Source of the DNA: Candidatus Doudnabacteria bacterium | GTDB lineage: Bacteria > Patescibacteriota > Doudnabacteria > UBA920 > O2-02-FULL-48-8 | Assembly: GCA_039931165.1 (NCBI GenBank) | Contig: JBDTSL010000002.1 | Coordinates: forward strand, 71,134-135,133 | Reading direction: 5' to 3' | Length of the DNA stretch: 64,000 bases | Shown: piece after piece, positions 1,372 to 56,726 of the stretch | Numbering within the stretch: position 1 is the stretch's first letter | Layout: every line of letters starts with the position of its first letter | Position numbers and translations under genes: made by a program | Notes under the pieces: model-generated | What the model was told of the DNA's origin: nothing | The model's database searches: none | What the model saw: the letters and a program-made list of their open reading frames with translations, nothing else

Positions 1372-2613
1372 TTATATTCCCCTGTCACGCATGGCCTGGG
1401 CTATGCGATTAATTGCCAAAATAAACGCCGCGTTGCGAAAATCCGTGTGATATTTTTCTTTGGCGGAGACAACTCCTTTCCATGCCACGAACATGTAACT
1501 TGTCAGTTTTTTCAGCACCTCGGCTTTGCTCCAATAATTCCCGCTTAAGTTCTGCGACCATTCCAGATAAGAGGTTGCCACACCGCCGGAATTCGCCAGC
1601 ACATCCGGAATGACCCAAATACCTTTCTTACGCAATATTATATCAGCTTCCGGCGCGGTCGGTCCATTGGCCATTTCCAAGACCAGTTTTGCTTTGATCT
1701 TTTTGGCATTGCCTTTATGAATCTGGTTCTCAAGAGCCGCCGGCACCAGAACGTCCACGGGCAATTCCAAAAGTTTTTCATTTGTGACATCAACCGTGCC
1801 AGGAAACCCTTTCAATCCTCCCCGCTCCCGCTTATGGTCGTGGATTTTTTTTATATCGAGCCCACGGGGGTTGTAAATTCCGCCCTTGGAATCGGACAGC
1901 GCCACAACCCTAAAACCGGCCTCGACCGCGAGTTGCGCAAAGAACGACCCGACATTGCCGAAACCCTGAACCGCGATGCTCGTTCCTTTTTTTAGTTTCA
2001 AAGCTTTTGCCGCAAGTTTCAAAATCTCGACCCCGCCAAACCCGGTCGCTTCCTCGCGGCCTTGCGACCCGCCCATACTTAGAGGTTTTCCGGTGATCAC
2101 CGCCGGCGTAAACTTACCGACCAGCTTGGAATATTCGTCCACCATCCAGCCCATGATCTGCGGAGTGGTGTTGACATCGGGTGCTGGCACATCGACATTT
2201 GGACCGATGTCTTTATAAATCAGGTCTATAAATTTCCGGCTTAGCCGTTCCAGTTCGCCTACTGACAGTTTTTTCGGATCGACGATAATCCCGCCCTTGC
2301 CTCCGCCGTAAGGCACGCCTACCACCGCGTTTTTTATGCTCATCCAAAAAGCCAGTGCCTTGACCTCGTCCATATTCACCTTCGGATGATAGCGCAGCCC
2401 GCCTTTGAAAGGCCCTCTGGCGTCATTATATTGCACCCTGAAGCCGACAAAGATTTTTGTCTCGCCGTTATCCATCCTTACCGGAATCGAAACTTCGATA
2501 ATTCTGGCGGGATGTTTCAGCAAGGTATGGATTTCTTTATTTAAGCTTAAAGCCTTCGCGGCATTATCCAGCTGCCGCATGGCCGATTTGAACGGATTGA
2601 TCTTAATTGGCAT
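1372..2613 (-). CDS. gdhA: Glu/Leu/Phe/Val-family amino acid dehydrogenase (glutamate dehydrogenase-like)
   Basis: 413 aa; catalytic Lys motif 'PYGGGKGG'; Rossmann 'GFGNVGSF'; overall ELFV dehydrogenase layout. Confidence 0.85.
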   Translation of the reverse strand: MPIKINPFKSAMRQLDNAAKALSLNKEIHTLLKHPARIIEVSIPVRMDNGETKIFVGFRVQYNDARGPFKGGLRYHPKVNMDEVKALAFWMSIKNAVVGVPYGGGKGGIIVDPKKLSVGELERLSRKFIDLIYKDIGPNVDVPAPDVNTTPQIMGWMVDEYSKLVGKFTPAVITGKPLSMGGSQGREEATGFGGVEILKLAAKALKLKKGTSIAVQGFGNVGSFFAQLAVEAGFRVVALSDSKGGIYNPRGLDIKKIHDHKRERGGLKGFPGTVDVTNEKLLELPVDVLVPAALENQIHKGNAKKIKAKLVLEMANGPTAPEADIILRKKGIWVIPDVLANSGGVATSYLEWSQNLSGNYWSKAEVLKKLTSYMFVAWKGVVSAKEKYHTDFRNAAFILAINRIAQAMRDRGI

Positions 2614-2618
2614 ACTTT

Positions 2619-3542
2619 TTACCCCTGATCCATATGAAGATATTTTTCCGCGTCGAGGGCGGCCATGCAGCCCCAGCCGGCGGCGGTCACAGCCTGCCTA
2701 TACCGATAATCGCGGACATCGCCCGCCACGAAAACTCCCTCGACATTGGTTTTGGTCTGATCAATGGGCTCTATATAACCTTTGGCATCAAGTTTGAGCT
2801 GGCCCGCAAAAATTTCCGTGTTCGGTTTGTGGCCAATGGCAATAAACGCCCCTTCGATCGGACGTTCCTCAATCTTGCCCGAAATTGAATCTTTCACTTT
2901 CACACCCGCGAGGCGGTCACTGCCTAAAAACTCTTCCACGGCTTTATTGTATTCAATGCTTATCTTCGGATTCGCTTTGGCCCTGTCCTGCATGATCTGG
3001 GAGGCCCGCAGTTTATCGCTCCGGTTCAGTATTGTAACTTTTTTTGCGAATTTCGTCAGATATAAAGCTTCTTCCAACGCCGCGTCGCCGCCGCCCACGA
3101 CAATTATGTCCTTTTCCTTGAAAAAAAATCCGTCGCAGGTGGCGCAGGAGGAAATTCCTTTACCGCGGAATTTTTCTTCCGAAGGCAGGCCCAGCCAGAT
3201 CGAGGAAGCGCCGGTGGCGACAATGATGCTTTCGGTTTGATAAGTCTTGCTCCCCGATGTAACGCTGAATGGCTTTTGGCCAAATTCAACTTTGACAGCA
3301 TCTTCAAAAATAATCTCCGCGCCAAACCTCTTTGCCTGATCGATCATTTTTTGCATCAATTCCGGACCCTGAACTCCTTCGGGAAATCCCGGAAAATTCT
3401 CCACTTCCGACGTGATCATCAGTTGTCCGCCGTAAGTAAACCCGCCGATGACCAAAGGCTTGAGATTGGCTCTGGCCGCGTATAGGGCGGCAGTAAGGCC
3501 AGCCGGGCCGGAACCAATGATGATGAGCTTATGCGTATCCAT
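2619..3542 (-). CDS. trxB: thioredoxin-disulfide reductase
   Basis: 307 aa; FAD motif 'IIGSGPAGLTAA'; redox-active 'CATCDGFFF'; NADPH GxGxxA 'VVGGGDAALEEA'. Confidence 0.85.
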   Translation of the reverse strand: MDTHKLIIIGSGPAGLTAALYAARANLKPLVIGGFTYGGQLMITSEVENFPGFPEGVQGPELMQKMIDQAKRFGAEIIFEDAVKVEFGQKPFSVTSGSKTYQTESIIVATGASSIWLGLPSEEKFRGKGISSCATCDGFFFKEKDIIVVGGGDAALEEALYLTKFAKKVTILNRSDKLRASQIMQDRAKANPKISIEYNKAVEEFLGSDRLAGVKVKDSISGKIEERPIEGAFIAIGHKPNTEIFAGQLKLDAKGYIEPIDQTKTNVEGVFVAGDVRDYRYRQAVTAAGWGCMAALDAEKYLHMDQG

Positions 3543-6025: not shown

Positions 6026-6750
6026 ACCTCTTCAGCCGCAAATCCAATCAAGACCTGATCGAACAGCTGGCGAAATCCCGGCAGGATTTTCAGTTTGACC
6101 GCTTCGGCATAAAAAATAAATTGCTCATGAGCCTGGAAAACTCTCCGGAGGAGCCTGTTGCCCATAAATTTTTCACGATCAGGCTGATAAAATATTCCGC
6201 GACATTTGCCGGTCTGTTAATTTTTCTTTCAACCGCGCTTAGTTTTGCCTCAACCGCGAAACCTGGCGATAAATTATTTCCTCTCAATAAACTGGAGGAA
6301 AAAATGATTTTGAACCTGCCGCTGTCAGCGGAACAAAAAGCCGATCTGCAAGTGCGAATAGTCAGCAAACGGCTGGAGGCGCTGAAAGCAGTGGAAAATA
6401 CAACCAACAACGTAAGGCTTCAGGCCAAACAATTGGAGACAGTGAAAGAATCAGACGCAAGCATTAAACAAGCCGTGGACAGCGTGTCCGCCAATAAAAA
6501 CGCGCTCAAGGGTCCTGGTAAAACCGCGACCGAGCAAAAGCTTGACCAAGTGTTAAATCAGATCGATGATCTGGCCCAAAAACACGAGCAGCGGATCCAA
6601 AGCTTGGAAGACTCCGCGTCTGATAAAAACATTAAGCAATCGCTTAACCAGCATCTGAATGAAATAAAAAATTCCAGGCACAAGGCTCAGAATGAGATAA
6701 AATCGCAAGACCACCGGGACCCGGATCATGAAAAAAAATCCGGCGATTAA
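6022..6750 (+). CDS. putative anti-sigma factor (single TM helix + coiled coil)
   Basis: Start overlaps the sigma stop (ATGA); one TM helix 'FAGLLIFLSTALSFAST'; C-terminal Q/K/E-rich coiled coil. No recognisable catalytic motif. Confidence 0.35.
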   Translation: MNLFSRKSNQDLIEQLAKSRQDFQFDRFGIKNKLLMSLENSPEEPVAHKFFTIRLIKYSATFAGLLIFLSTALSFASTAKPGDKLFPLNKLEEKMILNLPLSAEQKADLQVRIVSKRLEALKAVENTTNNVRLQAKQLETVKESDASIKQAVDSVSANKNALKGPGKTATEQKLDQVLNQIDDLAQKHEQRIQSLEDSASDKNIKQSLNQHLNEIKNSRHKAQNEIKSQDHRDPDHEKKSGD

Positions 6751-7517
6751 CCCTCCAGGTAAGCGGCTAATCCTGATAAAAATTCCTTCCTGGTCTCCAG
6801 TTGGCGCTTAACCCCTTCCCAGACCAGCTGTTTGGTATCGCGATCGAACACGATCTTATCCAGGATATGGCTTGAATTCACCACGTAATTGGCGCCGGAA
6901 TTGCCTTGTGTCGACAAAATCTCCAGGTCTTTATTGCCGAGGGCGGTATTTTTTTTGAGCATTTCCAGGATCGCCAGATTCTCCTCCTTGACCGCCCGCT
7001 CGGCAGCGGCGTATGCCCCGACCGCGGTTTGCCATTCGGATGACGAATAGACATCCGACATCTCGGCGATATAATTCCGGGTTTGCTCTTTCAGCACTGC
7101 CCGTCCGATGTCTTCTGTCTTCAGACCCAGCGCCAAAAGCAAGTACTGCCAAAGCGCGCGGTGGGCAGTGCCTTCCGGATCTTCCTGCCTTTTTTTATCC
7201 AGGATTTCTAAAGCGCTTTCGGCGGTCGGATCGTCTGATTCGGATAAATTGGCGATCGCGAAACGCAAAAATCCCGGATCGCCTTCTCTGGCGCCCAAAA
7301 AAGCCTCGGCCGCCAAAAATTTCTGGAGCATGAATTTTTTTATCTTCTCCGGCCTTGGTTTCGCTGCCTTTATCCGGATAACCGCTGGCCAGGCTTTTAT
7401 TTGCCGGCTGATGTGATCCATGAGCCATTCTATAAACTGTTCGCCCATGAATTGATCCACTGCCTGCTCGGGATTATTTATGATATTGGTATTGTCGGTT
7501 AGCTCATTCATGCTCAT
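6747..7517 (-). CDS. hypothetical all-alpha protein (possibly heme-oxygenase-like / PqqC-TenA-like fold)
   Basis: 256 aa, helical, Glu/Ala-rich. No diagnostic motif found; the fold guess is weak. Confidence 0.35.
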   Translation of the reverse strand: MSMNELTDNTNIINNPEQAVDQFMGEQFIEWLMDHISRQIKAWPAVIRIKAAKPRPEKIKKFMLQKFLAAEAFLGAREGDPGFLRFAIANLSESDDPTAESALEILDKKRQEDPEGTAHRALWQYLLLALGLKTEDIGRAVLKEQTRNYIAEMSDVYSSSEWQTAVGAYAAAERAVKEENLAILEMLKKNTALGNKDLEILSTQGNSGANYVVNSSHILDKIVFDRDTKQLVWEGVKRQLETRKEFLSGLAAYLEG

Positions 7518-9268: not shown

Positions 9269-9532
9269 ATGCATTATCTGTATATTCTCAAAAGCCAATC
9301 CAAAGATTGGTACTATGTAGGAATGACGGACAATCTAAAAAAACGACTAGCACAACATAATTTAGGAAAAACTAAATCAACCAAACCTTATAGGCCATTC
9401 AAGATAGTGTATACTGAAACCTATCAAAGCAAGACTGAATGTAGGAAGCGAGAGTTGTTTATAAAAAATAACCACGCTGCTAAACAAGCTATTGTAGAAA
9501 ACATGTATATGGTCCCATCGTCTAACGGTTAG
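9269..9532 (+). CDS. GIY-YIG nuclease superfamily protein (YhbQ/UPF0213-like)
   Basis: 87 aa; 'YLYILKSQSKDWYYVGMTDNLKKRLAQHNLGK' GIY-YIG motif plus conserved Arg/Glu. Last 7 codons (MVPSSNG) are encoded by the tRNA-Glu 5' end. Confidence 0.7.
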   Translation: MHYLYILKSQSKDWYYVGMTDNLKKRLAQHNLGKTKSTKPYRPFKIVYTETYQSKTECRKRELFIKNNHAAKQAIVENMYMVPSSNG

Positions 9533-10724: not shown

Positions 10725-11924
10725 TTAGAGAGAACTCAACGCGTCCGGTTTGACCTTGATTATTTTATCATCGCCCGAACGAACTGTTCCCCGTCCGTCT
10801 CGGTTGGATGTCGTGATATACAAATATCCGTCAGGTCCCAAAACCACAGCGCGTAAACGGCCATACGTCCCTTTCAGGTGTCCCACGAAAGCTGCGATCT
10901 TGCCATCCGAGCCCAATTTCGCTTCATAAAGAGCGGAGCCTTTCAACCCGCCAAAGAACAGGCTGTGATTGACATAAACAATTCCTCCCGGCGCCCAAAT
11001 GCTCCTGCCGGAATGTTTTATCGGTCCCACGGTTCCGGCTGCTACATTATCGCCGACGCTGTTTGGCCATCCGTAATTTTTCCCTTTTTCTATCAGATTT
11101 AATTCATCCTGACAGCAGTTGGGCCAAGTTGCTGAAGGACCGTGTTCCGTCTCCCACATCCGGCCCCTGTCGTCCCAGACAATCCCTTGCGGGTTGCGGT
11201 GGCCGTATGACCAGACCGCGGTTCCGAACGGATTATTCGCCGGGATCGCGCCGTCGGCTGTTAAGCGCAAAATTTTGCCGTTCAAAGAATTCAAGTCCTG
11301 GGCTGAATTCGGATTTTGCGCGTCGCCTGTGGTGATATAGAGCATACCATCGGGCCCAAAAGCCATCCGTCCGCCGTCGTGATAAATGGATGAAGCAATA
11401 TTCCCGATAATGACCTTGTCTTCAGTAAGCTTGTCGCCATTTAGCTTGAACCGGACGATCTGGTTCGTTTTGCCCGTGGTAGTATAGAATAAATAGATCA
11501 AAGAATTTTGCTCAAACTGCGGATGCAGGACCATGCCCATTAGTCCCCCTTCACCCACGTGCGCTACCGAAGGAATTGTTATGGTCGCCGGATGCGCGCC
11601 AATGCGCCTGATCGCTCCAGTCCGCTGAGTGACCATCATATCTCCCCCTGGCAGGAACACAATGTCCCAAGGAACATTCAGTCCGGTTGCCACAACCTGA
11701 ACCGGCCGAGCAGGCACGGGTGGTTTAACAACCGGCGGGGCTGATTGCGGAGATGTAGCGGAAGCGGTGGTCGGTTGAACGGGATCAGGCTGTTGGCCGG
11801 CAGGGACCGGTTGCATGGCTGTCTGGTTACAGCTGGCCGCAGTCAGTAAAACTAAGCCGGCGAGTAAAATAATTTTTTTTCCGGCGAAGCCGGATCCCGC
11901 TGGGCGGGACATTTTTATATTCAT
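10725..11924 (-). CDS. PQQ-dependent sugar (glucose/sorbosone) dehydrogenase family beta-propeller protein, secreted
   Basis: 399 aa; signal peptide/lipobox 'LLTAASC'; Pro-rich linker; 'GLNVPWDIVFLPGGDMMVTQRTG.IRRI' and 'HDGGRMAFGPDGMLYITTGD', 'YGWP' motifs of the soluble GDH/SGDH family. Confidence 0.75.
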   Translation of the reverse strand: MNIKMSRPAGSGFAGKKIILLAGLVLLTAASCNQTAMQPVPAGQQPDPVQPTTASATSPQSAPPVVKPPVPARPVQVVATGLNVPWDIVFLPGGDMMVTQRTGAIRRIGAHPATITIPSVAHVGEGGLMGMVLHPQFEQNSLIYLFYTTTGKTNQIVRFKLNGDKLTEDKVIIGNIASSIYHDGGRMAFGPDGMLYITTGDAQNPNSAQDLNSLNGKILRLTADGAIPANNPFGTAVWSYGHRNPQGIVWDDRGRMWETEHGPSATWPNCCQDELNLIEKGKNYGWPNSVGDNVAAGTVGPIKHSGRSIWAPGGIVYVNHSLFFGGLKGSALYEAKLGSDGKIAAFVGHLKGTYGRLRAVVLGPDGYLYITTSNRDGRGTVRSGDDKIIKVKPDALSSL

Positions 11925-11955
11925 GTAGTTTGATTATAGCAAGAATGGCTTTGAT

Positions 11956-13944
11956 TTAGAAACCATAGGCTCTGAAATCCGTTTCGTTGATATTGTGGAT
12001 CGAATCGGGATTCAATCCGAGAGTTGGAAGAGAATTGAATATCCCTACATTCCTTTTGCCACTGATAGAATATACGCTACCGTCTTGCGGGCGCATGATC
12101 AGGTCAGTAGCGGGAAAGTATGCCAATTCAGCTTGGTTAATAGTAACGATATCCGAGGCATGCCATCCGTAAGAATTAAAAACTTCCAGGCTGACGATGC
12201 CCCGCCTAGAACCGAGGTTATTCAAGACATATACCTCATCGTTGCCCGGCACGAGGACCAAAGAAGCCGAAGGAATCACATCCACAATGCTCTGCGGTAG
12301 GTCATAAACGGCGTCCAACGGAAAGGCCAGAGAACCTACCGTCGTTTTGGGGTCCACCGGAAGTTTTTTGTTGTTTTGGATGACATACACTATTTTATCT
12401 GCCATGCCGCGGATGAGCATTCCGTCAGGGTATTGATTTTGAGGACCGGCATAGGCCGAAGCCGAGGCCAGAACTTTCATATAACTATTCTGGACATCCA
12501 GTTGTACCAGGACAACACTGGAATTGTTGTCATACCGCCCCTCAATAAAATGCTGGCGTGGATCGACGTTGAACGACAGGCGGTAAACGCCGCTTGGCAT
12601 ATCAGTAATGTCAATAAATTGATCGGGCAGGGAATATAAATACACATCCGCCCACCCCACCGACACGCCTTGCCGACCTTTGTTGCATGTTGTAAAAAAT
12701 TTTTTTCTTGACGCGCCATTCAAGCTCAGATTCACTGCCAGGTCGTCGCGCATGCAGAACGTCGTTTTTTGCCTAACCTCGGGAGGGATGATTAACGGGG
12801 CCTGGTCCGTTACCGGCTTTACCGGCTCGAGGACATAATCGGCAAAGTCACTGAAATGAAAATGCAAGTGTGCCTGATGCCACAAAAAATTCCCCACTAC
12901 CTTGTCGCGGATATTGCCGCTAGGATCGATAATGTGCTGAAACGATTCCAAATATATGTCACCTTTAACTTTCGCAAGCGTGGGATCCGTGATCAGGTCC
13001 AGCCTGCCGTTTCCCTGGTTCCAAAAATTGGAAGTAAATCCCAGAATAGTCCGGCCGCTTCTGGTAGCCAAATAAACATCCTGCATCGGAAACGGAACCA
13101 GATCAGGCAAAGCATTCTCTTCCCCCGGAAACAACAATCTGGTGGTCAGCTCAGTGATCTGTTCTGCTTCCTGATAACGGTCCAGGACGGTGCTTGATAC
13201 CGATACCACATTTGTCCAACGGAAACCCTGTACCCGGAACGCCTCCGGTGAAAGTATCCAACGTTTCATCCCGTTCAGAATATAATATACTTTTGGATCA
13301 GAAATGGCCTGGACCAAAGTTCCGTCAGTTAAAATTGCCGAATCCGGCAGAACTTTTCTGTTGATAACCGAACCGGCAACATTTCCATTTGAAACAGCAG
13401 CCGTGTCTTTATAATTCAGCGGGTCCAGATCAGGCAAAGCCAAATCCGCGCCATTTGCAGGCACCACGCTGTTCGTTTGCCAATTCCAGGAATTAAAAAC
13501 CTTAATATCCGGAATTAACTGCTTTCCATTGTTAACAACTTTAAATATAGCAGGGCCGATTTTTATCAATGCCCCTGGCGGGTGGGGCAGATCTTCCGAA
13601 ATCACCGGCTGGCCAGCCGGATAATCAGATAGGTTCGCTTTTACTGTCTGTGAAAATTTGTACCCCAGACCGGTAAACACTTCCGGGCTTACAAATCCGC
13701 GCTTTATGCCGGAATCAATAATGTATATTGTCCCATGATTATCGGACGTATCAAGTACAAGAATCCCATCGGCCAACAGGGTATCTGCTATGGCGCTCGC
13801 GGCTAAGGGCGCAATTCCAATTGCCAGTACCAGCAAAAAAGAACCGAACATGATACTGATTCGGTTTTGCAAAAGTAATGCTATAATTGGCTTCTCAAGG
13901 CTTGAAGAAGGGTGGCTCATCGCTTTTTGTTTTGGGTTCTGCAA
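11956..13944 (-). CDS. secreted lysyl oxidase-like copper amine oxidase domain protein with flanking ~45-aa repeats
   Basis: 662 aa. Residues ~350-475 'WHQAHLHFHFSDFADY...RQKTTFCMRDD...GWADVYLYSLPDQFIDITDMPSGVYRLSFNVDP...YDNNSS' align with the LOX catalytic domain (WEWHSCHQHYHSMDEFSHY...GHKASFCLEDT...[20 protein letters not shown]...SDYSNN). His triad, LTQ Lys and Tyr are conserved. Signal peptide from Met32. At least 5 copies of a motif 'hYhI.nG.KR.I.S.E.F...G(Y/F/W)....V..V....L..Y'. Confidence 0.7.
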   Translation of the reverse strand: MQNPKQKAMSHPSSSLEKPIIALLLQNRISIMFGSFLLVLAIGIAPLAASAIADTLLADGILVLDTSDNHGTIYIIDSGIKRGFVSPEVFTGLGYKFSQTVKANLSDYPAGQPVISEDLPHPPGALIKIGPAIFKVVNNGKQLIPDIKVFNSWNWQTNSVVPANGADLALPDLDPLNYKDTAAVSNGNVAGSVINRKVLPDSAILTDGTLVQAISDPKVYYILNGMKRWILSPEAFRVQGFRWTNVVSVSSTVLDRYQEAEQITELTTRLLFPGEENALPDLVPFPMQDVYLATRSGRTILGFTSNFWNQGNGRLDLITDPTLAKVKGDIYLESFQHIIDPSGNIRDKVVGNFLWHQAHLHFHFSDFADYVLEPVKPVTDQAPLIIPPEVRQKTTFCMRDDLAVNLSLNGASRKKFFTTCNKGRQGVSVGWADVYLYSLPDQFIDITDMPSGVYRLSFNVDPRQHFIEGRYDNNSSVVLVQLDVQNSYMKVLASASAYAGPQNQYPDGMLIRGMADKIVYVIQNNKKLPVDPKTTVGSLAFPLDAVYDLPQSIVDVIPSASLVLVPGNDEVYVLNNLGSRRGIVSLEVFNSYGWHASDIVTINQAELAYFPATDLIMRPQDGSVYSISGKRNVGIFNSLPTLGLNPDSIHNINETDFRAYGF

Positions 13945-13980
13945 GATTTCACTATGTTCTTATTATAGCATAAAATAAAG

Positions 13981-14069: not shown

Positions 14070-14780
14070 ATGTTTAAAAAAGTTATCTTAATTATCGGCG
14101 TCATTCTGCTCACTCTGGGGCTTAATTTCTTATTTGCCAAAGAGCGTATTTCTGTTGCCCAAAACTCTGCGCAAAAGCCGGCCATAGCCGGGATATCAAC
14201 CACTACGTCAATACGAGGAGGGGTTGAGCCGCAAATAGCCGGGATCTCAACGACCGAAAACTCAGAGGCGACTGCCGCTCCGATTTTCACGGCTCCTATC
14301 AGCAATGCTTTGGCGAGGATAACAGCAAAACCACTCGGTATTTACATAACGCCCGAAACTTCCCCTGTTCCGGATGATATCTTTACCGGTTTCCACGCGG
14401 GCGTGGATTTTGAAATCACAGCGGCCGAACAAAATATAGACGTGCCTATCATGGCGATCTGCACCGGCAAATTAAGAACCAAGGAATGGGCGAAAGGATA
14501 CGGCGGTGTCGCGGTGCAGGATTGTATTTTGGACAACCAGCCTGTGACTATAATTTACGGCCACATGAAACTTGATAGCATCATTGCCATTGAAGGAGCA
14601 GAACTTAAGCAAGGTGATACACTGGGAATATTGGGCCAAGGATTTACTTCTGAAACCGACGGCAGACGAAAACATCTTCATTTAGGGATCCATAAAGGCA
14701 ACGGTCCCAGCATCTTGGGTTATGTCCCGGCCAAGCAAGATCTGGCAGAATATATTGATATCACAAATTATTTGAAATAA
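14070..14780 (+). CDS. M23 family metallopeptidase (LytM-like)
   Basis: 236 aa; N-terminal TM anchor; 'FHAGVDF' (HxxxD) and 'KHLHLGIH' (HxH) zinc motifs. Confidence 0.8.
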   Translation: MFKKVILIIGVILLTLGLNFLFAKERISVAQNSAQKPAIAGISTTTSIRGGVEPQIAGISTTENSEATAAPIFTAPISNALARITAKPLGIYITPETSPVPDDIFTGFHAGVDFEITAAEQNIDVPIMAICTGKLRTKEWAKGYGGVAVQDCILDNQPVTIIYGHMKLDSIIAIEGAELKQGDTLGILGQGFTSETDGRRKHLHLGIHKGNGPSILGYVPAKQDLAEYIDITNYLK

Positions 14781-23196: not shown

Positions 23197-26100
23197 TTAT
23201 TTCTTCAGCTTTTTCTTCTTACCCGCTTTATCGCCGGCAAATTCCAATTCTTTCACTTTCTCTTCGACTCGATCCGTGGTGGTCATTTCCCGCAGCTCGG
23301 CCGCGTCATCCAAGGCCAGTTTCTCGCCGATCAATTCCACGTTCAGGCACAACGATTGCAGTTCCTTGACCAAAACCCGGAAAGATTCCGGAACGTTCGG
23401 CTTCTTGATCGGCTCACCTTTTACGATTGATTCGTAAGTTTTGGCCCGGCCGACCACGTCGTCGGATTTTATGGTCAGCATTTCCTGCAAAGTGTGGGCG
23501 GCGCCATATCCTTCCAAAGCCCAGACTTCCATTTCCCCGAATCTCTGGCCGCCGAACTGGGCTTTGCCGCCCAATGGCTGCTGGGTGATCAGGGAGTAGG
23601 GGCCGGTGGAGCGGGCGTGCATCTTGTCGTCAACCAAATGATGCAATTTCAGCATGTAAATTATTCCGACCGTGACTTTTTCAATAAATTGCGTGCCGGT
23701 TTTGCCGTCATACAAATATACTTTCCCATCTTCCGGGTATCCGGCTCGCTTCAGTTCCGCTTTGATGATTTCTTCCGGCACACCGTCCAGAGCGGGAGAG
23801 GCGACTTTATAACCCAATTTTTTCGCGGCTAATCCCAAATGAGTTTCCAAGATCTGTCCGATGTTCATACGAGAGGCCACACCCAAAGGATTTAAAATAA
23901 TATCGACAGGTGTGCCGTCGGCCATAAATGGCATGTTCTCAACCGGGATGACCTGGGAAATAACGCCTTTATTCCCGTGCCGGCCGGCCATTTTGTCGCC
24001 AACCTGGATTTTCCGCAATACCGCCACCGAGACCTGGATCGAGCGGATAACGCCTGAAGGCAGTTTGTCGCCCTGCTCTCTGGAAAATTCGCGGATGTTC
24101 ACGACTTTGCCGTATTCGCCGTGGGGCAGGGTCAGGGAAGTGTCTTTTACGTCGCGAGATTTCTCGCCGAAAATCACGCGCAGCAGCTTTTCTTCGGCTG
24201 TCAGGTCGGTTTCGCCTTTCGGCGTAATTTTGCCGACCAAAATATCTCCGGCCTTGATCTGAGCGCCGACGCGGATAACGCCGTTCTCGTCCAGATCTTT
24301 GAGTTTTTCCTCGCCGACGTTCGGAATATCGCGGGTAATGATCTCAGGTCCCAATTTCGTATCGCGCAAGTCAACTTTAAAATCTTCTATGTGGATCGAA
24401 GAATAGCGGTCCTGTTCCACGACGCGGGAAGAGATCAGGATCGCGTCTTCATAATTTCCGCCCTCCCAGGACATGAACGCCACCAGCATGTTTTGTCCCA
24501 AAGCCAACTCGCCTTTTTCTATGGCCGCGCCATCGGCGATCGGCTGACCGGCTTTGATCTCCTGGCCTTTGGTCACGGTCGGGTGCTGGTTGATAGAGGT
24601 GGATGTATTGGAACGGATAAATTTCTGGAGCAAATATTCTTTTTTTCCGGCGGAGCCGGATCCGGCTTTGCCGGACTTGCTTGGCAAAATAATAATCTTA
24701 TCACCTGTCACGCTCAAAACTATGCCGTCGGTTTCGGAAATCACTACCTGGCCCGAGTCGTAAGCGGCTTTGGCTTCCACGCCGGTACCAACAACCGGAG
24801 AATCGGGTTTGATGCAGGACACGGCCTGGCGCTGCATGTTCGAGCCCATCAAGGCGCGGTTGGCGTCGTCATGTTCCAAAAAAGGAATAAGAGAGGTTGT
24901 GACCGAAATGATCTGCTTAGGAGAAACTTCGACGAAATCAATGTCAGCCGTTTCGGCGATCGAAGGTTCGGCGTTGACCCTGGCCGAAGTCCGCAGTTCG
25001 GTGAAAGAACCGTCCGGTTCGGAAAGAACAGTTGCTTGGGCGATAACCGTGAATTGCTCTTCGTAGGCATCCAAATACTGGATGTCGTCGGTCATCCGGG
25101 GTTTGATCTTTAAAGCGGCAAGAGTTTTGTTTAGTGATAATTTTTCGGCCGCTTCTTTGGAAATTTTCTCGCCGGCGCTGACCACCACTTCTTCATTCGC
25201 ATCGAGCAGATCAACTAAAGCCGTCTCTCCGACAGCAGCCTTGCCGTCATTGGCCACATTCTTTTTGACTTTGCGGTAAGGAGTTTCGATAAACCCAAAA
25301 TCATTGATCCTCGCATAGCTGGCCAAATGCGCCACCAGGCCGATGTTCGGGCCTTCGGGAGTGGTGATAGGACAGAGGCGCCCATAGTGGGAGCGGTGAA
25401 CATCGCGGACCTCAAACCCGGCCCGCTCGCGGGAAAGTCCTCCCGGCCCCATGGCCGAAAGCCTGCGTTTATGCTCGAGCTCGGCTAAAGGATTGGTCTG
25501 GTCCATGAACTGGGAAAGCTGCGAGGATGAGAAAAACTCCTGAATGACCGCGACGATAGGACGGACGTGGATCAGCTGGGCCGGGGTCACGGTCTCAATC
25601 TCAGCCAGTGACATCCTGTCTTTGGCAATCCTGCTCATGCGGGCCAGACCGACGCGGAATTTTTGCTGGATCAGCTCGCCGACCGCTCGGACGCGGCGGT
25701 TGGACAAATGATCGATGTCGTCCATGATTCCCTGGGAGTTGTTCAGACGGATGATCTCGCGGATTATGTCGGTTAGATCTTCTTTGGTCAGGATCCGGTC
25801 TTCGCGGTCTTTTACGTTTAGGCGCTGATTGAGTTTGTACCGCCCGACCTCGGACAGGTCATACCGGTCGGCATGAAAAAACATCGCTTCGATCAGGGAG
25901 CGGGCATTATCCACCGTGGCCAGATCCCCGGGGCGGATCCTTTTATAAACTTCCTTGTAGCCCTCATCGGCGGATTTTGACGGATCTTTTTCCAGAGTAT
26001 TTTGGATATAGCGCATGTCGGGGTTGGTATCGACATCGGCAAAAGCCGCTAAAATTTCTTCATCAGTCCCGAATTTAAAGACGCGCATCAGGGCTGTGAT

Positions 26101-26703
26101 CGGGATGCGGCGCTTGCGGTCGATTTTCACGCTGATCACGCCATTGAGGTCGGTTTCCACCTCGAGCCAAGCCCCGCGGTTGGGAATGATCTTTGCGCCA
26201 TACCAATTCCTGCCCCTGGCTGGTTCGCCTGTGAAGAACACGCCCGGAGATTTCACAAGTTGCGACACGACCACGCGCTCCACTCCGTTGATCACAAATG
26301 TGCCGCGCGGCGTCATCAATGGAAAATCACCCAAGTAGACATCTTGGGTTTTGGTCTTGCCTGTGACCTTATTGACCAGCTTTACCGAAACATACAGAGG
26401 CGCTTCGAAAGTCGTATTGCGCTCTTTGGCGGTTTTTTCGTCGTACTTCGGTTTATCCAAATAGTAATCGCCAAAAAACAATTCCAAATTCTTGCCGGTA
26501 AAGTCCTTGATGGAGTTGATTTCGGCAAAAAGTTCTTTCAAGCCCGTTTCCCACAACCATTTGTAGGATCGAATCTGCGATTCGATCAAGTTGGGCATTG
26601 CCAAAACTTCGTGAAAAGGAGTAAAAAACTTTCGGAGACCCTGTTGACGGTTGGGACCTGGCAAATTAAGGCTTAAATTAGCCATTTTTACTTTTTGAGG
26701 CAT
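23197..26703 (-). CDS. rpoB: DNA-directed RNA polymerase subunit beta
   Basis: 1168 aa; 'PNLIESQIRSY' N-terminus; 'GDKMAGRHGNKGV' rif-region/active-site motifs; 'EMEVWALEGYGAAHTLQEMLT'. Confidence 0.95.
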   Translation of the reverse strand: MPQKVKMANLSLNLPGPNRQQGLRKFFTPFHEVLAMPNLIESQIRSYKWLWETGLKELFAEINSIKDFTGKNLELFFGDYYLDKPKYDEKTAKERNTTFEAPLYVSVKLVNKVTGKTKTQDVYLGDFPLMTPRGTFVINGVERVVVSQLVKSPGVFFTGEPARGRNWYGAKIIPNRGAWLEVETDLNGVISVKIDRKRRIPITALMRVFKFGTDEEILAAFADVDTNPDMRYIQNTLEKDPSKSADEGYKEVYKRIRPGDLATVDNARSLIEAMFFHADRYDLSEVGRYKLNQRLNVKDREDRILTKEDLTDIIREIIRLNNSQGIMDDIDHLSNRRVRAVGELIQQKFRVGLARMSRIAKDRMSLAEIETVTPAQLIHVRPIVAVIQEFFSSSQLSQFMDQTNPLAELEHKRRLSAMGPGGLSRERAGFEVRDVHRSHYGRLCPITTPEGPNIGLVAHLASYARINDFGFIETPYRKVKKNVANDGKAAVGETALVDLLDANEEVVVSAGEKISKEAAEKLSLNKTLAALKIKPRMTDDIQYLDAYEEQFTVIAQATVLSEPDGSFTELRTSARVNAEPSIAETADIDFVEVSPKQIISVTTSLIPFLEHDDANRALMGSNMQRQAVSCIKPDSPVVGTGVEAKAAYDSGQVVISETDGIVLSVTGDKIIILPSKSGKAGSGSAGKKEYLLQKFIRSNTSTSINQHPTVTKGQEIKAGQPIADGAAIEKGELALGQNMLVAFMSWEGGNYEDAILISSRVVEQDRYSSIHIEDFKVDLRDTKLGPEIITRDIPNVGEEKLKDLDENGVIRVGAQIKAGDILVGKITPKGETDLTAEEKLLRVIFGEKSRDVKDTSLTLPHGEYGKVVNIREFSREQGDKLPSGVIRSIQVSVAVLRKIQVGDKMAGRHGNKGVISQVIPVENMPFMADGTPVDIILNPLGVASRMNIGQILETHLGLAAKKLGYKVASPALDGVPEEIIKAELKRAGYPEDGKVYLYDGKTGTQFIEKVTVGIIYMLKLHHLVDDKMHARSTGPYSLITQQPLGGKAQFGGQRFGEMEVWALEGYGAAHTLQEMLTIKSDDVVGRAKTYESIVKGEPIKKPNVPESFRVLVKELQSLCLNVELIGEKLALDDAAELREMTTTDRVEEKVKELEFAGDKAGKKKKLKK

Positions 26704-26991
26704 GCCTTTTAGTAGGAAAATTACTTAATAATTTATTAAACGATAAAATAATTCGCGGAAAAAATTAATCCCAGTAGAATTTGGCTAACATTAGCCATTA
26801 TATATGTTTCGAGGATACGAAACATATACCGAATTTCTTCTACAGGGCATAAAAACAACTCCCTTTTTCGCATATGCAAAAAAGAGCCGTCGTGGGCTAT
26901 ACTCTTATTAAATTAAATATCACTTGTGTATAATAAACTTTTTTAGAAAGTTGTCAAGTTTAGAGTTTTGAGACTTCGATTTTGAAAAAAC

Positions 26992-27017
26992 TAATTACGT
27001 AATTAAATATGTAATTC
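26992..27017. repeat. 26-bp terminal inverted repeat, left copy (taattacgtaattaaatatgtaattc)
   Basis: Exact reverse complement of 30615-30640; itself contains the palindrome taattacgtaatta. Confidence 0.85.
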
Positions 27018-27047
27018 AGTATATATTCGTTAGTATCCATTCTTAGA

Positions 27048-30000
27048 TTATTTGTTTTCCAGTCTACAAATTTCTAAATACGTTTGATTAACCATTTTAT
27101 CAATATTAATAATGGTTTTCTCATCAGAATAATTTTTATGTGCTAGTTTTGAAAAGTCAGATAGCTGTTTATGACGCTGATTGCTCTTAGAATATCGTGG
27201 AATAAAAACCGGAGGGCGAATCTTAAAGCTTCTTGAATCAGAGGAATTCGTAATAAACCTTTGGGTAATGGGCGCATTCAAGATTGCGCAGACAAAGTGT
27301 GCTTCGTCAGTAGAAATAAATTCTCCATCTTCTCTTTCACACATTGAAACAGCGTGATTTTGGAATACCGGGCGCTTTTTACCTCCCCAATCTGTTTCTA
27401 TTTCTTCTACAACCGCTGCCTGCCATTTTGTGTTATCGCGAAAAGTTACATATGTTTTTGCGAAGCTATATGCACCGACGCGCGCTAGTGCATAAAATTC
27501 CTTCTCCCTTTTGCCGATGATCTTCTCGTTATAGGCTGTCTGAGCTTCAATCGCCGCTTTATTATCGAGTATGTATTTAGCTAGATTGGGTGATTTCTTT
27601 CTTAGTTCACTAAGAATGAGTGGAACTCGAGTACTGAAAGATTTTTCATATGGAAAAGGTACGACAAATTCAGAATCTACATTGAGATGATACCTCTCGA
27701 TATTGATACCTTTTATTAAAGGATATACGAACATCTTTTCAAACAAAACATCCTGAGCGGGAATTTTATGTTTTGAATGTTCATTTTGATAGTTGTTTAA
27801 ATAGATCTCATTTTTTCTTTTTGGCATTTCATCGTCTATTTCAAAAAGAAATAGTTCTTGAGGGTAAAACTCAACTCCCTCTCTACCTATATAGCTAGAC
27901 TTACCGGAGATTACCCTGAATTGTTCTAAATCTTTGGATGAATCAGCGTACGAAAAGTTAGTGCTTCCTTTTATGCATTGCCCCATTAATTTATGCTCAA
28001 TCCTAAAAGAATCCCTTACTTCATCATAGCGGATATGTTCGTTAATTTTCTCTATCTTGTTACCAGATTTTTTTATAAAGAATGATACATCAATTCCTTT
28101 TTCGTAATCTGTAACTTTGTCGGAAATAAAATAGGTCAAAAATTTATGTTGTACGGGTTGAAAAGGATGTCCTGCCTTAGTCCAATCAAAGATATTTTGG
28201 AAATATAATCGTTCGCCATTAGAAAGATAGAAGTTTCGGAAACCCTCATAAGTCTGAAGGAGCATTAAGTTTTGTGGCATTAGGAATGCCAAGATGCCAT
28301 TTTTATTCAACCAGTTATCAGCCGCTACGTTAGCGATCAATGCACAGACGTTTAGATTTATGCCGCCAGTTAAACCATCGCCGGAAAATAGGTGGCGTTC
28401 AATACATAGTGATTTAATTCTGTTTCGATAACCTTCTGGTAAATTACGCCAATCAATCCAAGGAGGGTTTCCTACAATTAATTCAAATCTACCAAGGCTC
28501 GCAGTTGTGAGAAAATTAGTAACTATTCGCGCCCAAATACCATTCCATTCATTTTTTTCCAGATCAATAAATTTCTTTGCCAATTCATCAATTTTTTCAC
28601 TTATCTCTGGTATTAGTTCTTTTGAGTTGGCAAGACCCTTTATCTTTGTTGCAACTGCTGACCAGTCTAAAGATTTAATATCGTATTCAATCTCAGTCAT
28701 TGTCTGTGAAAAACGATCAGTATTTGAGACAACGCTTTTAGGTAAAACAATATCAATGGACCCCTTTAAGGTTTTAATGTGGTAACCAAGACACTCAACA
28801 TCTTTTATCTTCTGCGGTTCTGGTACATAAGATGAATCCCCGAGATAAATTGGGATATTAAAACGAATACCTTCTTCAATAAGATGTGCTGTATTTATAA
28901 AATAATTTACTCGACCTGTTAGAACCGACAAGGGATTAAGATCAATTCCTTTAACACGAGATAGTATCTCCTTTATTCTATCTGTACGATTTTCAGATTG
29001 CGTTTCCTCAAGAACTTTCTGAATGCCCACTATCAAAAAAGTACCCGAACCTGATGTTGGATCTAGCATCCTCCAATTATCCTTTTTCTTTAGTTGCGAA
29101 ATTGACTCCAGTACTAAGTTATCAGCTAGCCATGCTGGCGTGTAAAATTCTCCCAAACTATGTCGAACCTTTGAGGGCACAATATGCTGGTATAACTCTT
29201 TGAAGAGATCGTGTGTCCTTACTTGCTCATGCACAAGAACCTTATCCTCATATTTTGAAAGGACTTGTACGACTTCAACAATCTTTTTATGTATCTCTTT
29301 TGACCATTGTTGCTTTGATGCGTACCAAGAGAAATAATCACCCTCCAACAAATTGTTTATACCAATAGTCCTGAAGATCTCACCATCTTCAAGAGAGAGC
29401 ATTTTCATTTGAAGAACGGCTGAGTTGGCTTGAGCTATGTCACCAAATTCAAAAATGTTTTTATTAAAATAGATTTTACTTACCACTTTAAAAGCGATGA
29501 GCTTAACAATCAGAGCGTAGGTCGTTTGCAGAGCATAGAGGGCAAGGTATTCCTCTCTATTTGTCTTTATACCAACATCGATAGCAGTAGACAGTTCTTT
29601 GCGCCGGTCTTGCAGATCTCGTTGTTGAGAAGTGTCATCGTGAGATAGTTTGAAAAGCTCCTGCCACTCTTCAAACAACATTTCAGTCTTTGGTTTCATC
29701 TCATCGAGGAGCGTTTTGTAAAATACCTTTGTTAGTTGTTTTGCGAGATTGTCATCCAAAGGTTCACAAAAATCTCGAATTAAATTATCCGACGTGAGAG
29801 CTATCTGCTCCAATAGGATAATAGTTTTTACTAATCTATCTAATGAAGTTGGCGAAATGTCCATCCAAGCCTCTGTGTAAATTTGGCCACCCTCACTTCG
29901 GATAAACCTGCAAATAACACCATCAGTAACTAGGCCAAGATAATCTGTGGGGTTTTTTACATTTAGACCCCGCAGGTAATCTTCAAGCTGTGAGGAAGCC

Positions 30001-30380
30001 TTTTCTTTAAGTGTCGAAGTTTTTAGCTTGCTAGGATGTTTAAATTCAATAACAAATGCCCCGTACTTACTGTCGATTCTTCCTTGAGCAATATGCCTTT
30101 CTGTTCCGACGAATTTTTCTTTTTCAGGATAATACTTAAGACCAAGTTCGTTATTAATGAAGGAAAAAAGATTTAGTTCAAAACTGCTGACAACGGTTGC
30201 TTCATTTTCAGCAGTTTCGGAGCGCCTTTTAATAGCTAAAACAAGGCCCGGGAGCTTATTTCGATAGTCTGTAGAATATAATTTCTTAGTTACTGATTCA
30301 TTCATGATGTTATCTAACAAAATAGCGGCTAGTTTACCCGTTTTCTGATTTAATTCTAAACCAAATACGGCCAGACTCAA
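27048..30380 (-). CDS. Type IIG/IIL restriction-modification fusion enzyme (MmeI-family-like: PD-(D/E)xK nuclease + gamma-class N6-adenine MTase + TRD)
   Basis: 1110 aa, ~33% GC. N-terminal 'GRIDSKYGAFVIEFKHP' matches the MmeI D-x9-E-x-K nuclease motif; 'GEFYTPAW' motif X; 'MLDPTSGSGTFLI' motif I; 'GNPPWIDW' motif IV; long C-terminal target-recognition region. Confidence 0.7.
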   Translation of the reverse strand: MSLAVFGLELNQKTGKLAAILLDNIMNESVTKKLYSTDYRNKLPGLVLAIKRRSETAENEATVVSSFELNLFSFINNELGLKYYPEKEKFVGTERHIAQGRIDSKYGAFVIEFKHPSKLKTSTLKEKASSQLEDYLRGLNVKNPTDYLGLVTDGVICRFIRSEGGQIYTEAWMDISPTSLDRLVKTIILLEQIALTSDNLIRDFCEPLDDNLAKQLTKVFYKTLLDEMKPKTEMLFEEWQELFKLSHDDTSQQRDLQDRRKELSTAIDVGIKTNREEYLALYALQTTYALIVKLIAFKVVSKIYFNKNIFEFGDIAQANSAVLQMKMLSLEDGEIFRTIGINNLLEGDYFSWYASKQQWSKEIHKKIVEVVQVLSKYEDKVLVHEQVRTHDLFKELYQHIVPSKVRHSLGEFYTPAWLADNLVLESISQLKKKDNWRMLDPTSGSGTFLIVGIQKVLEETQSENRTDRIKEILSRVKGIDLNPLSVLTGRVNYFINTAHLIEEGIRFNIPIYLGDSSYVPEPQKIKDVECLGYHIKTLKGSIDIVLPKSVVSNTDRFSQTMTEIEYDIKSLDWSAVATKIKGLANSKELIPEISEKIDELAKKFIDLEKNEWNGIWARIVTNFLTTASLGRFELIVGNPPWIDWRNLPEGYRNRIKSLCIERHLFSGDGLTGGINLNVCALIANVAADNWLNKNGILAFLMPQNLMLLQTYEGFRNFYLSNGERLYFQNIFDWTKAGHPFQPVQHKFLTYFISDKVTDYEKGIDVSFFIKKSGNKIEKINEHIRYDEVRDSFRIEHKLMGQCIKGSTNFSYADSSKDLEQFRVISGKSSYIGREGVEFYPQELFLFEIDDEMPKRKNEIYLNNYQNEHSKHKIPAQDVLFEKMFVYPLIKGINIERYHLNVDSEFVVPFPYEKSFSTRVPLILSELRKKSPNLAKYILDNKAAIEAQTAYNEKIIGKREKEFYALARVGAYSFAKTYVTFRDNTKWQAAVVEEIETDWGGKKRPVFQNHAVSMCEREDGEFISTDEAHFVCAILNAPITQRFITNSSDSRSFKIRPPVFIPRYSKSNQRHKQLSDFSKLAHKNYSDEKTIINIDKMVNQTYLEICRLENK

Positions 30381-51834: not shown

Positions 51835-52090
51835 ATTTTGGAAAAATCATAATTCCATGTCCTATAATCTTGCCTTTTGAATCTTTTCTTAGTTTACTCT
51901 TAATAACTTGAAAATCTTCTTTGCTTTGTTATTTTATATATCTCATCCACCAACTGCATGGATTTCTGCCACACTATCAAGTCTTTGAAATTATGTATAG
52001 TCATGGTTTTACTTAGGGTGGAGGTTTGAGCGCCCAGCGCGCGGTAGGTTTGAGGTTTCAGCGCCCACCCGAGGGTTCATTCTGAGCGCT

Positions 52091-52145
52091 CCCCCCTGCA
52101 CCCTGACCCCTACTTTCCTGACCCCTCGGCGCTGACCCCTTCCCC
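52091..52145 (-). repeat. G-run cluster (GGGGTCAG x3 plus further G4-6 runs), potential G-quadruplex, minus strand
   Basis: On the + strand: cccccc...ccc..cccc...cccc...cccc..cccc within 55 nt; embedded in a GC-rich 170-bp tract (51980-52150) with gcgccca repeats inside AT-rich DNA. Confidence 0.5.
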
Positions 52146-52152
52146 TGGCAAT

Positions 52153-52515
52153 CTACCCTCTTTTTCGAACGTTTACTTTTATATAACTTATTTTCGGAAT
52201 TCTTTTTAGAAATGCTCTATTTTTTGACATAATAGTTACTTTGGCGACCTTGCGGCCAGAATGCCATCCAAGCTTAGGCGCGCCATTTACTCTCGGAGCG
52301 TTCACAAATTTTGTATGATTACAATTTTTACAGGCTGTAACGAAATTTTCAATTCCATCATATCCACCCTTACTGACTGGAATGATATGGTCTACGTTCA
52401 ATGAACTAGATTTCTTCCGAACACCGCAATAACCGCAAATATATTTATCCCTGATATATACTCGCTTTCTGAGTGCTGGCTGGATAGTCTTTCTTGTTTT
52501 ATCCCTAAATGCCAT
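52153..52515 (-). CDS. HNH endonuclease
   Basis: 120 aa; 'CGYCG...NVDHIIPVSKGGYDGIENFVTACKNCNHTK' canonical HNH with Cys4 zinc site. Confidence 0.8.
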   Translation of the reverse strand: MAFRDKTRKTIQPALRKRVYIRDKYICGYCGVRKKSSSLNVDHIIPVSKGGYDGIENFVTACKNCNHTKFVNAPRVNGAPKLGWHSGRKVAKVTIMSKNRAFLKRIPKISYIKVNVRKRG

Positions 52516-52641
52516 TTGTTTTCTTTAAATTACTTCCTTGGCAATCCTCACCACTTTCGCAATATTTTTTTTCATATTTTAATTATTGAAATTTTAATAA
52601 ATATAATAACAACTTCTGATTAAAGTTCTCAGGCTAAGAAT

Positions 52642-54078: not shown

Positions 54079-54087
54079 AAGGACTAT

Positions 54088-56110: not shown

Positions 56111-56726
56111 TTATTATAAATTCTTTTAAAATTTCACTCATTGGTTCTAAGTCTGGAACTGCTTTTGTGTAAGCAGGATTAGGCATCCAGCTTGCAAGTG
56201 GAGGTAGCCCAATTGAGTACCCAGCAAGGCATACACTTTTGTCGTCATCTAATAAAAATGCTTGTACATAAAAATCTGCCTTTGAATTTTGTTTTTGATC
56301 AATTAATAAATTAAGGGGCATTCCGTTTAATTTTAGTCCTTTAAATATTTGGTCTAAAGATACTTTATTATTTTCGTAAGTTTTTATATCAATGGTCTTA
56401 TTTTTGATTTTAAACTCAAATCCCTCATCAAATTTCCCAATGACAATCCCATAAGAAAACTCTACTCTTTTATGAAGTATTTGCCATCTGTCTAGGGGTT
56501 CAATCGCTCCAAAATTATTATTGAGGTAACTAAAAATATATTCTAAAAATGCAAGTTCGCCTAAAATTCCCGTCTTAATTTTATTGATATGTGATATTTT
56601 TTCGTAACTACCATAGCCCCGGCGTGGATATTCAAATAAACTCCTTTTCTCGGCCACATACTCGGCCACATGGTTCATCTCGTCTGTTATAGCTATAACT
56701 ATTAGATTACTCTTATTTACAGACAT
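56103..56726 (-). CDS. hypothetical protein sandwiched between the two MTase genes (possible restriction/nicking subunit)
   Basis: 207 aa; overlaps both neighbours (translational coupling); 'GILGELAFLEY' plus Asp/Glu/Lys-rich segments; no confident motif. Confidence 0.4.
   Translation of the reverse strand: MSVNKSNLIVIAITDEMNHVAEYVAEKRSLFEYPRRGYGSYEKISHINKIKTGILGELAFLEYIFSYLNNNFGAIEPLDRWQILHKRVEFSYGIVIGKFDEGFEFKIKNKTIDIKTYENNKVSLDQIFKGLKLNGMPLNLLIDQKQNSKADFYVQAFLLDDDKSVCLAGYSIGLPPLASWMPNPAYTKAVPDLEPMSEILKEFIINA

Follow-up and report, generated by a model that had tools for sequence, protein, structure and literature searches.

A lysyl oxidase-family protein with flanking repeats and a linked PQQ-type dehydrogenase in Candidatus Doudnabacteria

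What a lysyl oxidase (LOX) family protein does in a bacterium is the question raised by a gene on the minus strand of the window analysed here, a 64,000-nucleotide stretch (positions 71,134 to 135,133) of contig JBDTSL010000002.1 from the Candidatus Doudnabacteria bacterium assembly GCA_039931165.1. The gene occupies positions 11956-13944 of the window. The native role of prokaryotic LOX proteins has been called both ‘enigmatic’ and ‘cryptic’ (PMC4448552, PMC6452851). Here we combine profile searches, structural modelling and comparative analysis of gene neighborhoods to constrain that role from genomic context, and we examine the catalytic domain, the repeats that flank it and the dehydrogenase and peptidase genes that accompany it.

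The longest open reading frame (ORF) of the gene encodes 662 residues counted from the most upstream TTG, and residue numbers follow this count throughout. The start codon is ambiguous, with candidates at TTG 13944, ATG 13920, TTG 13872 and ATG 13851. The likely start is TTG 13872, which yields a 638-aa product, as in the NCBI record of an identical protein, located on a 140.7-kb contig and titled ‘MAG: lysyl oxidase family protein [Candidatus Doudnabacteria bacterium]’. The LOX label is an already existing automatic NCBI annotation, and the source of the record confirms the guess of an initial annotation, made from the letters of this DNA, that the gene belonged to a small-genome bacterium. 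A putative Sec-type signal peptide, read from the sequence, is kept with every candidate start and ends in ...LAIGIAPLAASA, immediately before IAD; it spans residues 25-51 (13792-13872, minus strand; ...APLAASA before IAD). An NCBIfam scan of the protein returned no model, and a Pfam match to SAM_Ste50p (E 0.08, below gathering score) was dismissed as noise.

The initial annotation had proposed a LOX catalytic domain on the strength of several motifs, all of which are present in the protein, and the searches it had suggested substantiate the proposal. A Pfam scan matches PF01186 at residues 353-486 (E 7e-15; 55.6 bits against a gathering score of 20.4), and a phmmer search of PDB sequences finds human LOXL2 (5ZE3, E 2e-7). 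Because W355-H363 (WHQAHLHFH) aligns on LOXL2 W622-H630, the predicted copper ligands of the HxHxH motif are H359, H361 and H363 (12856-12870, minus strand), equivalent to LOXL2 H626, H628 and H630; the histidine triad named earlier is real, although its numbering (356/358/360) was off by three. The residues previously assigned to the lysine tyrosylquinone (LTQ) cofactor were placed correctly, with the predicted LTQ lysine K393 (12766-12768, minus strand) aligning to LOXL2 K653 and the predicted LTQ tyrosine Y435 (12640-12642, minus strand) to Y689. All five positions, together with C397, are invariant in 27 of 27 sequences (the query and 26 homologs), at a core identity of only 40-55%. C397 and C420 (12685-12756, minus strand) are the only two cysteines of the protein and are equivalent to the LOXL2 disulfide C657-C673, so just one of the five disulfides of the LOXL2 catalytic domain is retained.

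Structural modelling extends this assignment to the whole catalytic core, residues 268-500 (12445-13143, minus strand). An AlphaFold2 model of this region, built on a 24-sequence alignment, has a mean predicted local distance difference test score (pLDDT) of 90.7 and a predicted template modelling score (pTM) of 0.87. When the model is compared to the PDB with Foldseek, LOXL2 is the sole significant match (E 4e-10 and 6.7e-10, probability 1.0), with a TMq of 0.58-0.63 over 247 columns, and the next match has an E of 4.6e-3 and a TM of ~0.2. The only structural template, 5ZE3, represents a precursor state. The fold match also covers the N-terminal half of the LOX domain, including a conserved LPDL motif, which lies beyond the reach of the Pfam profile, only the C-terminal 60% of which aligns to the protein.

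That partial profile alignment and the retention of a single disulfide could be taken to indicate a LOX-like domain that is catalytically dead and serves as a structural or adhesin module. We consider this highly improbable, given that the copper ligands, both LTQ residues and C397 are invariant among such divergent sequences and that the entire domain is modelled confidently as a LOX fold. With a profile score above the gathering threshold, the HxHxH motif, the LTQ lysine and tyrosine, and the predicted fold all in agreement, the protein is almost certainly a LOX-family enzyme. It belongs to the broad family and lies outside the animal LOX/LOXL subfamilies, since it has only two cysteines (one disulfide of five) and the Pfam scan detected no scavenger receptor cysteine-rich (SRCR) domain or propeptide.

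The most informative fact about the locus lies in the adjacent gene (10725-11924, minus strand), which starts 31 nt after the LOX stop codon. The product matches PF07995, the glucose/sorbosone dehydrogenase (GSDH) family, with an E of 4e-78, and closely resembles solved aldose dehydrogenases dependent on pyrroloquinoline quinone (PQQ), scoring 263 bits against 3A9G and 247 bits against 2ISM. Its N-terminus is lipoprotein-like (..LTAASC) and is followed by a Pro-rich linker. The YHDGG motif, containing the catalytic His, and the GHRNxQG, EHG, RxR and NYGWP motifs are invariant in 21 of 21 LOX-linked propellers. By profile, catalytic His and PQQ-binding motifs, the gene is predicted to encode a PQQ-dependent soluble aldose/glucose dehydrogenase of the six-bladed propeller (GSDH/Asd) type. 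A vicinal Cys-Cys pair (PNCCQ, residues 269-272 of the window GSDH) occurs in six of the 21 LOX-linked propellers, the others having S-G at this position; six-bladed PQQ proteins from the Candidate Phyla Radiation (CPR) have been reported to carry one or two cysteine pairs (10.64898/2026.07.10.737718).

The initial annotation had correctly identified a PQQ-type dehydrogenase next to LOX on the same strand, but by treating it as a mere neighbor it missed that GSDH is fused to LOX in most relatives. PF01186 and PF07995 occur in one polypeptide of ~800 aa in 19 of the 27 LOX homologs found with the query, arranged as signal peptide, one repeat, LOX, three repeats and propeller. Among the unfused cases, a 533-aa propeller gene lies directly upstream of LOX in two (P0023 and P0025), overlaps it by 4 bp and encodes a different propeller subfamily (DUF7133/TrAA12-like), 24% identical to that of the window. 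Short sister LOX proteins without repeats follow the same pattern in two cases, with GSDH directly downstream of P0038 and P0041, and P0043 has no GSDH there. A scan with a LOX-core profile of one genome per GTDB species, annotated with local hidden Markov models (HMMs), provided 30 loci. The 19 belonging to the clade comprise 14 fusions, three with LOX followed by a type-A propeller and two with a type-B propeller followed by LOX, so that linkage is found in 19 of 19.

The more distant LOX proteins examined do not share this association. None of the 11 more distant LOX loci of the scan, from genomes titled Planctomycetaceae, Verrucomicrobiales, Chloroflexota, Actinomycetota, Myxococcaceae, Rubrivivax, Hydrogenedentota and others, has a propeller, an M23 peptidase or the repeat within ~7 kb (0/11), and none of 67 further bacterial LOX proteins carries a GSDH domain (0/67), these being LOX-only or combined with CARDB, PPC, dockerin or type IX secretion system (T9SS) tags. 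We therefore rejected GSDH adjacency as a general property of bacterial LOX. Within the clade, LOX is fused or adjacent to a propeller in 27 of 28 loci. The fusions, the adjacency conserved in both gene orders and the fact that two different propeller subfamilies have been recruited are, in combination, strong arguments that LOX is functionally coupled to the propeller, which we regard as very probable.

The relatives present further features of their own. One genome (L007, GCA_021733565.1) encodes at 1604-3496 of the plus strand a second, Cys-rich LOX paralog of 630 aa that is closer to animal LOX, with the motifs HEHYHFSHY, RKQAFCLQ and GVAVGWIDEYQMGLECQWLDVTDV; it lies ~2.5 kb upstream of a LOX-GSDH fusion, with a sortase gene and an M23 gene in between. 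Eight fusion-bearing metagenome-assembled genomes (MAGs) that represent GTDB species (L009, L010, L014, L019, L020, L021, L023 and others) are third-party annotation (TPA) entries titled ‘uncultured Gammaproteobacteria bacterium’, and another (L012) is titled ‘Candidatus Binatia’. The non-CPR titles of these nine MAGs may be unreliable, or the bins may be contaminated.

Functional coupling can be understood in more than one way. In the main rival to the account we favor below, LOX would not be primarily an amine oxidase but the built-in electron acceptor of the PQQ propeller. A sugar would reduce PQQ, and PQQH2 would pass its electrons to the copper/quinone centre of LOX and from there to O2, yielding H2O2 and making the dehydrogenase a self-contained extracellular oxidase in organisms without cytochromes or a respiratory chain. 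The oxidative half-reaction of LOX does reduce O2, and the finding of two propeller subfamilies with the same LOX fits a generic redox partner better than a substrate-specific pathway. CPR bacteria have six-bladed PQQ propellers but no PQQ synthesis, and their propellers lack the adjoining or fused cytochrome c that is typical of other phyla (10.64898/2026.07.10.737718). Because LOX occupies the position of this cytochrome partner in nearly all clade loci, its copper/quinone centre could be the electron sink to O2.

The invariance of K393 does not discriminate here, as the LTQ lysine would be needed in either model. The repeats that lie between the two domains in the fusions, some 165 aa, count against direct transfer, and we know of no precedent for inter-cofactor transfer from PQQH2 to LTQ. 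On balance we judge it unlikely, if worth serious attention, that LOX serves mainly as electron acceptor, and marginally less likely that in CPR bacteria, which have no cytochromes, respiratory quinones or PQQ synthesis, the copper/LTQ domain of LOX is a recruited, dedicated redox partner and built-in terminal oxidase of the PQQ propeller. If true, the latter would define a new wall-anchored extracellular oxidase system with two quinocofactors, replacing the cytochrome c partner of the six-bladed PQQ enzymes of other phyla.

The repeats that flank the LOX domain indicate where it might act. The initial annotation had described at least five copies of a ~45-aa repeat, and the repeat detection it had called for confirms the repeats while revising their length and number. 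Using an HMM built only from six non-LOX proteins, and hence independent of the query, we find six copies of a ~55-62-aa unit that opens with a DG(T/S)L(V/I) strand. Three copies (R1-R3; residues 59-121, 123-182 and 207-270; 13135-13770, minus strand) precede the catalytic core and three (R4-R6; residues 507-563, 560-621 and 614-662; 11959-12426, minus strand) follow it, scoring in order 54.9, 30.8, 55.0, 14.2, 44.9 and 5.6 bits against a maximum of 3.5 bits in 500 shuffles. No Pfam family covers the repeat in this protein or in six other carriers, the protein has no significant sequence match to PF05108, and a search of PDB sequences with the repeat profile matched no chain. A match was found to the phage family phrog_9616, whose function is unknown (E 8e-17), and some carriers match the Pfam EccB model, so the earlier description of the repeat as unrecognised holds only in that Pfam lacks a dedicated model for it.

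An AlphaFold2 model of the three C-terminal copies (pLDDT 91.3, pTM 0.81) predicts a strand-strand-strand-helix-strand-helix unit. Fold comparison of the model points to the repeats of EccB1 (3X3M), PlyCB (4F87) and the wall-binding domains of enterococcal endolysins (6IST, 7D55), with scores that are weak but agree in direction. EccB1 repeats consist of a four-stranded sheet and two helices and resemble PlyCB (PMC4769845), and the predicted topology agrees with their description in that work (~55 aa, four strands, two helices).

The distribution of the repeat points in the same direction. When 1.84 billion cluster representatives were scanned exhaustively with HMMER, 11,243 proteins carried it at E<=1e-3 and 1,271 did so at E<=1e-30; the highest copy number, 17, occurs in a protein of 1423 aa. 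A Pfam scan of 70 top carriers identified SpoIID (14), Amidase_2 (12), the EccB model (8), Peptidase_S8 (4), M23 (3), Glucosaminidase (2), CHAP (1) and LGFP (1), and peptidoglycan-hydrolase families account for 32 matches among these carriers. Others are unrelated secreted enzymes, including S8 proteases, CAP proteins and a nuclease. Two proteins (P0032 and P0034) combine the repeat with an N-terminal domain that carries no annotation (...SPKFLLVLxQKEQSL...) and is possibly a wall hydrolase. Taken together, modelled fold and hydrolase association suggest that the repeat belongs to the EccB/PlyCB fold class and targets proteins to the cell wall, which it would bind, in line with the earlier guess of a surface or substrate-binding module, and we consider it probable that the repeats target LOX to the wall. 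It would be a wall-binding repeat of great abundance, found in upwards of 11,000 protein clusters, that still lacks a Pfam model.

A third component of the locus relates to the wall as well. Divergently transcribed from LOX, the gene at 14070-14780 of the plus strand encodes the M23 metallopeptidase named in the initial annotation (PF01551, 38.3 bits against a gathering score of 28.7, E 1.6e-9), with intact HxxxD and HLH motifs. M23 genes adjoin LOX/GSDH in all five individually retrieved loci, and their products are orthologs of the window protein at 32-47% identity. The HxGVD and HLH motifs and several family-specific motifs are invariant in this family, with H109..D113 and H202/H204 invariant in six sequences. 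The same M23 type is adjacent in 11 of the 19 clade loci of the GTDB scan, and in about two thirds of loci. That LOX, GSDH and M23 stay linked in many genomes lends support to the previous idea of an extracellular oxidative and cell-wall cluster. Peptidase_C39_2 and MurJ recur near LOX in the loci of some relatives and were not found in the window.

A wall anchor and a peptidase neighbor do not by themselves make the wall the substrate. LOX might act at the cell surface on soluble small amines (lysine, cadaverine, polyamines or aminoglycoside-like compounds), for ammonia release, for amine detoxification or for the production of H2O2 against host or competitors, with the repeats merely holding it on the wall of its producer and GSDH separately oxidising free sugars. 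The repeat does behave as a generic anchor on many unrelated secreted enzymes, such as the S8 proteases, CAP proteins and nuclease mentioned above, and HTU-LOX of the archaeon Haloterrigena turkmenica, the one characterised prokaryotic LOX, is a secreted, active, copper-dependent and β-aminopropionitrile (BAPN)-sensitive amine oxidase with relaxed specificity that oxidises glycine, taurine, aminoglycosides and polymyxin (PMC6452851). Such a role would nonetheless leave unexplained both the recurrent orthologous M23 neighbor and the fusion or adjacency seen in essentially every clade member, which persists even through the replacement of one propeller subfamily by another, and we consider it improbable.

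The account we favor is that of a Sec-secreted copper amine oxidase of the LOX family, docked on a cell-wall polymer by three EccB/PlyCB-like repeats on each side. Its LTQ cofactor would most likely be self-made from K393 and Y435, beside copper held by H359, H361 and H363, and the target would most likely be peptidoglycan or an attached wall glycopolymer, of the bacterium itself or of its host. The obligate partner of LOX would be a PQQ propeller dehydrogenase, either tethered to the membrane or fused, and the M23 endopeptidase would often assist. In a possible sequence of events, the endopeptidase would first open peptide cross-links and expose amines. LOX would then convert wall-bound primary amines, such as the Lys epsilon-NH2 of stem peptides or wall proteins, into aldehydes with release of H2O2 and NH3, and the propeller would come last, with the LOX product or the reducing ends of glycans in that same polymer as its substrate. 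The amine oxidation step is proposed by analogy with LOX chemistry and with HTU-LOX, and peptidyl wall amines (Lys side chains and newly exposed amines) are suggested as its substrate because of the wall targeting and the M23 partner.

Several observations weigh against this account. M23 is absent beside LOX in at least six of the 19 GTDB loci, all six with enough flank to tell, and the repeats are absent from four LOX-GSDH pairs (L025, L026, L039 and L041). The core pair can therefore do without either; we rejected both as obligatory parts of the unit, and M23 is a frequent accessory. The ~165 aa (three repeats) that separate LOX from the propeller in fusions speak against a rigid two-site channel. 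The relaxed specificity of HTU-LOX, which includes small free amines (PMC6452851), means that a polymer substrate is no given. CPR bacteria, in turn, cannot make PQQ according to a recent preprint (10.64898/2026.07.10.737718), so the propeller depends on scavenged cofactor. Finally, the evidence for the enzymes of this clade is computational throughout. It establishes domain identities, intact catalytic residues, folds, the tie between the repeats and wall hydrolases, and the gene linkage; from these we infer the activity, its substrate, the order of the steps and the owner of the targeted wall. Weighing these points, we lean modestly towards a wall-docked amine oxidase paired with a PQQ dehydrogenase, and we put forward the specific chemistry proposed for LOX, propeller and M23 only tentatively.

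Putative transcription signals are compatible with joint as well as separate expression of the pair. The 9-mer TGCTATAAT occurs eight times in the window (5452, 8436, 11933, 13879, 13962, 34586, 34953 and 51786) against 0.49 expected, a count that none of 100 shuffles reached. The copies lie mostly just upstream of gene starts, such as those of an extracytoplasmic function (ECF) sigma factor gene (copy at 5452, gene at 5492) and of an ORF at 8490 (copy at 8436), and the motif is probably the extended -10 promoter box of this organism. One copy (13962-13970, minus strand) lies upstream of LOX within the best promoter-like match of the region, and another (11933-11941, minus strand) lies 8 nt upstream of the GSDH ATG, a spacing that suggests a leaderless transcript. 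We found no minus-strand terminator between LOX and GSDH. Since GSDH has its own copy of the motif before its ATG and no terminator separates the genes, it may be transcribed in two ways, by read-through from LOX and from a start of its own that is possibly leaderless.

The locus itself does not stand out from its surroundings. LOX homologs had been described in the initial annotation as sporadic and horizontally spread, which agrees with the literature for prokaryotes (PMC4448552), but this locus shows no sign of recent transfer, because its GC content (0.474) is near that of the window (0.464) and its flanks carry housekeeping genes (TsaD, ValRS, RpoB/C, EF-P and FolD); a recent horizontal island was accordingly rejected. 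Elsewhere in the window, two stretches at 26001-30000 (GC 0.37-0.39) and 52001-58000 (0.32-0.34) fall below the overall value of 0.46 and may be islands gained by horizontal transfer. The first carries the gene for a 1110-aa Eco57I-like restriction-modification methylase (27048-30380), and the second has a strongly negative GC skew. An 87-aa ORF at 9269-9532 of the plus strand (MHYLYILKSQSKDWYYVGMTDNLKKRLAQHN...) encodes what, by its motif, looks like a stand-alone GIY-YIG nuclease-family protein. About 3 kb from the PQQ-dependent enzyme, the gene at 6747-7517 of the minus strand encodes a 256-aa protein with weak matches to TENA/THI-4/PQQC (23.7 bits against a gathering score of 22) and to Haem_oxygenas_2. 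Its probable identity is that of a TenA or haem-oxygenase-like di-iron protein, and it may alternatively have a PqqC-like role, in a lineage reported to be without PQQ synthesis.

We found no description of LOX-propeller coupling or of the repeat-LOX-repeat-propeller architecture in the literature searched. The prokaryotic LOX proteins surveyed by Grau-Bove 2015 come from five other bacterial phyla and two groups of archaea and nearly all have LOX-only architectures, and that work makes no mention of PQQ or a dehydrogenase (PMC4448552), and the 2026 preprint on six-bladed PQQ enzymes of CPR bacteria makes no mention of LOX (10.64898/2026.07.10.737718). The architecture, the obligate coupling and the wall-targeting context thus appear to be undescribed so far. 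They place a first strong contextual constraint, of a genomic nature, on the open question of bacterial LOX function, and they make several hypotheses testable, among them that wall peptides are oxidatively modified or cross-linked, that an amine is oxidised in two steps, first to an aldehyde and then to an acid, and that PQQ relays electrons to LTQ. They also bring a pair of oxidative enzymes into the sparse picture of the ways in which ultra-small episymbiotic bacteria deal with an envelope, whether their own or that of their host.

Comparison with known systems locates this protein with respect to both of its catalytic partners and to its repeats. It shares with human LOXL2 (5ZE3) the PF01186 family, the fold, the HxHxH motif, the LTQ Lys and Tyr and the positions of the C657-C673 disulfide, but it is only 19% identical, keeps one of five disulfides and has neither SRCR domains nor a propeptide. 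Unlike animal LOX/LOXL proteins it is flanked by putative wall-binding repeats and coupled to a PQQ propeller, and its substrate cannot be collagen or elastin. A secreted six-bladed PQQ propeller joined to a second redox domain is found in the fungal AA12 pyranose dehydrogenase with its AA8 cytochrome domain. In the LOX fusions, however, the second domain is a copper/quinone amine oxidase rather than a haem domain, and inter-domain electron transfer is only hypothetical. Compared with PQQ soluble dehydrogenases (PaeAsd 3A9G, Thermus thermophilus 2ISM, Escherichia coli Asd 2G8S and sGDH 1C9U), the partner shares PF07995 and the YHDGG, GHRNxQG and RxR motifs, but it is tethered in lipoprotein-like fashion, or fused to LOX in relatives, and its host lineage lacks PQQ synthesis and the cytochrome partners seen elsewhere (10.64898/2026.07.10.737718). 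The repeats differ from those of EccB1 (3X3M) and from PlyCB (4F87) in forming tandem beads on secreted enzymes, rather than part of a type VII secretion system (T7SS) core component or an octameric ring. HTU-LOX and other prokaryotic LOXs (Grau-Bove 2015; Pestov 2019) are likewise secreted LOX-domain proteins with conserved copper and LTQ residues, and to these described proteins the clade of the window adds the repeats, an obligate GSDH partner and an M23 neighbor.

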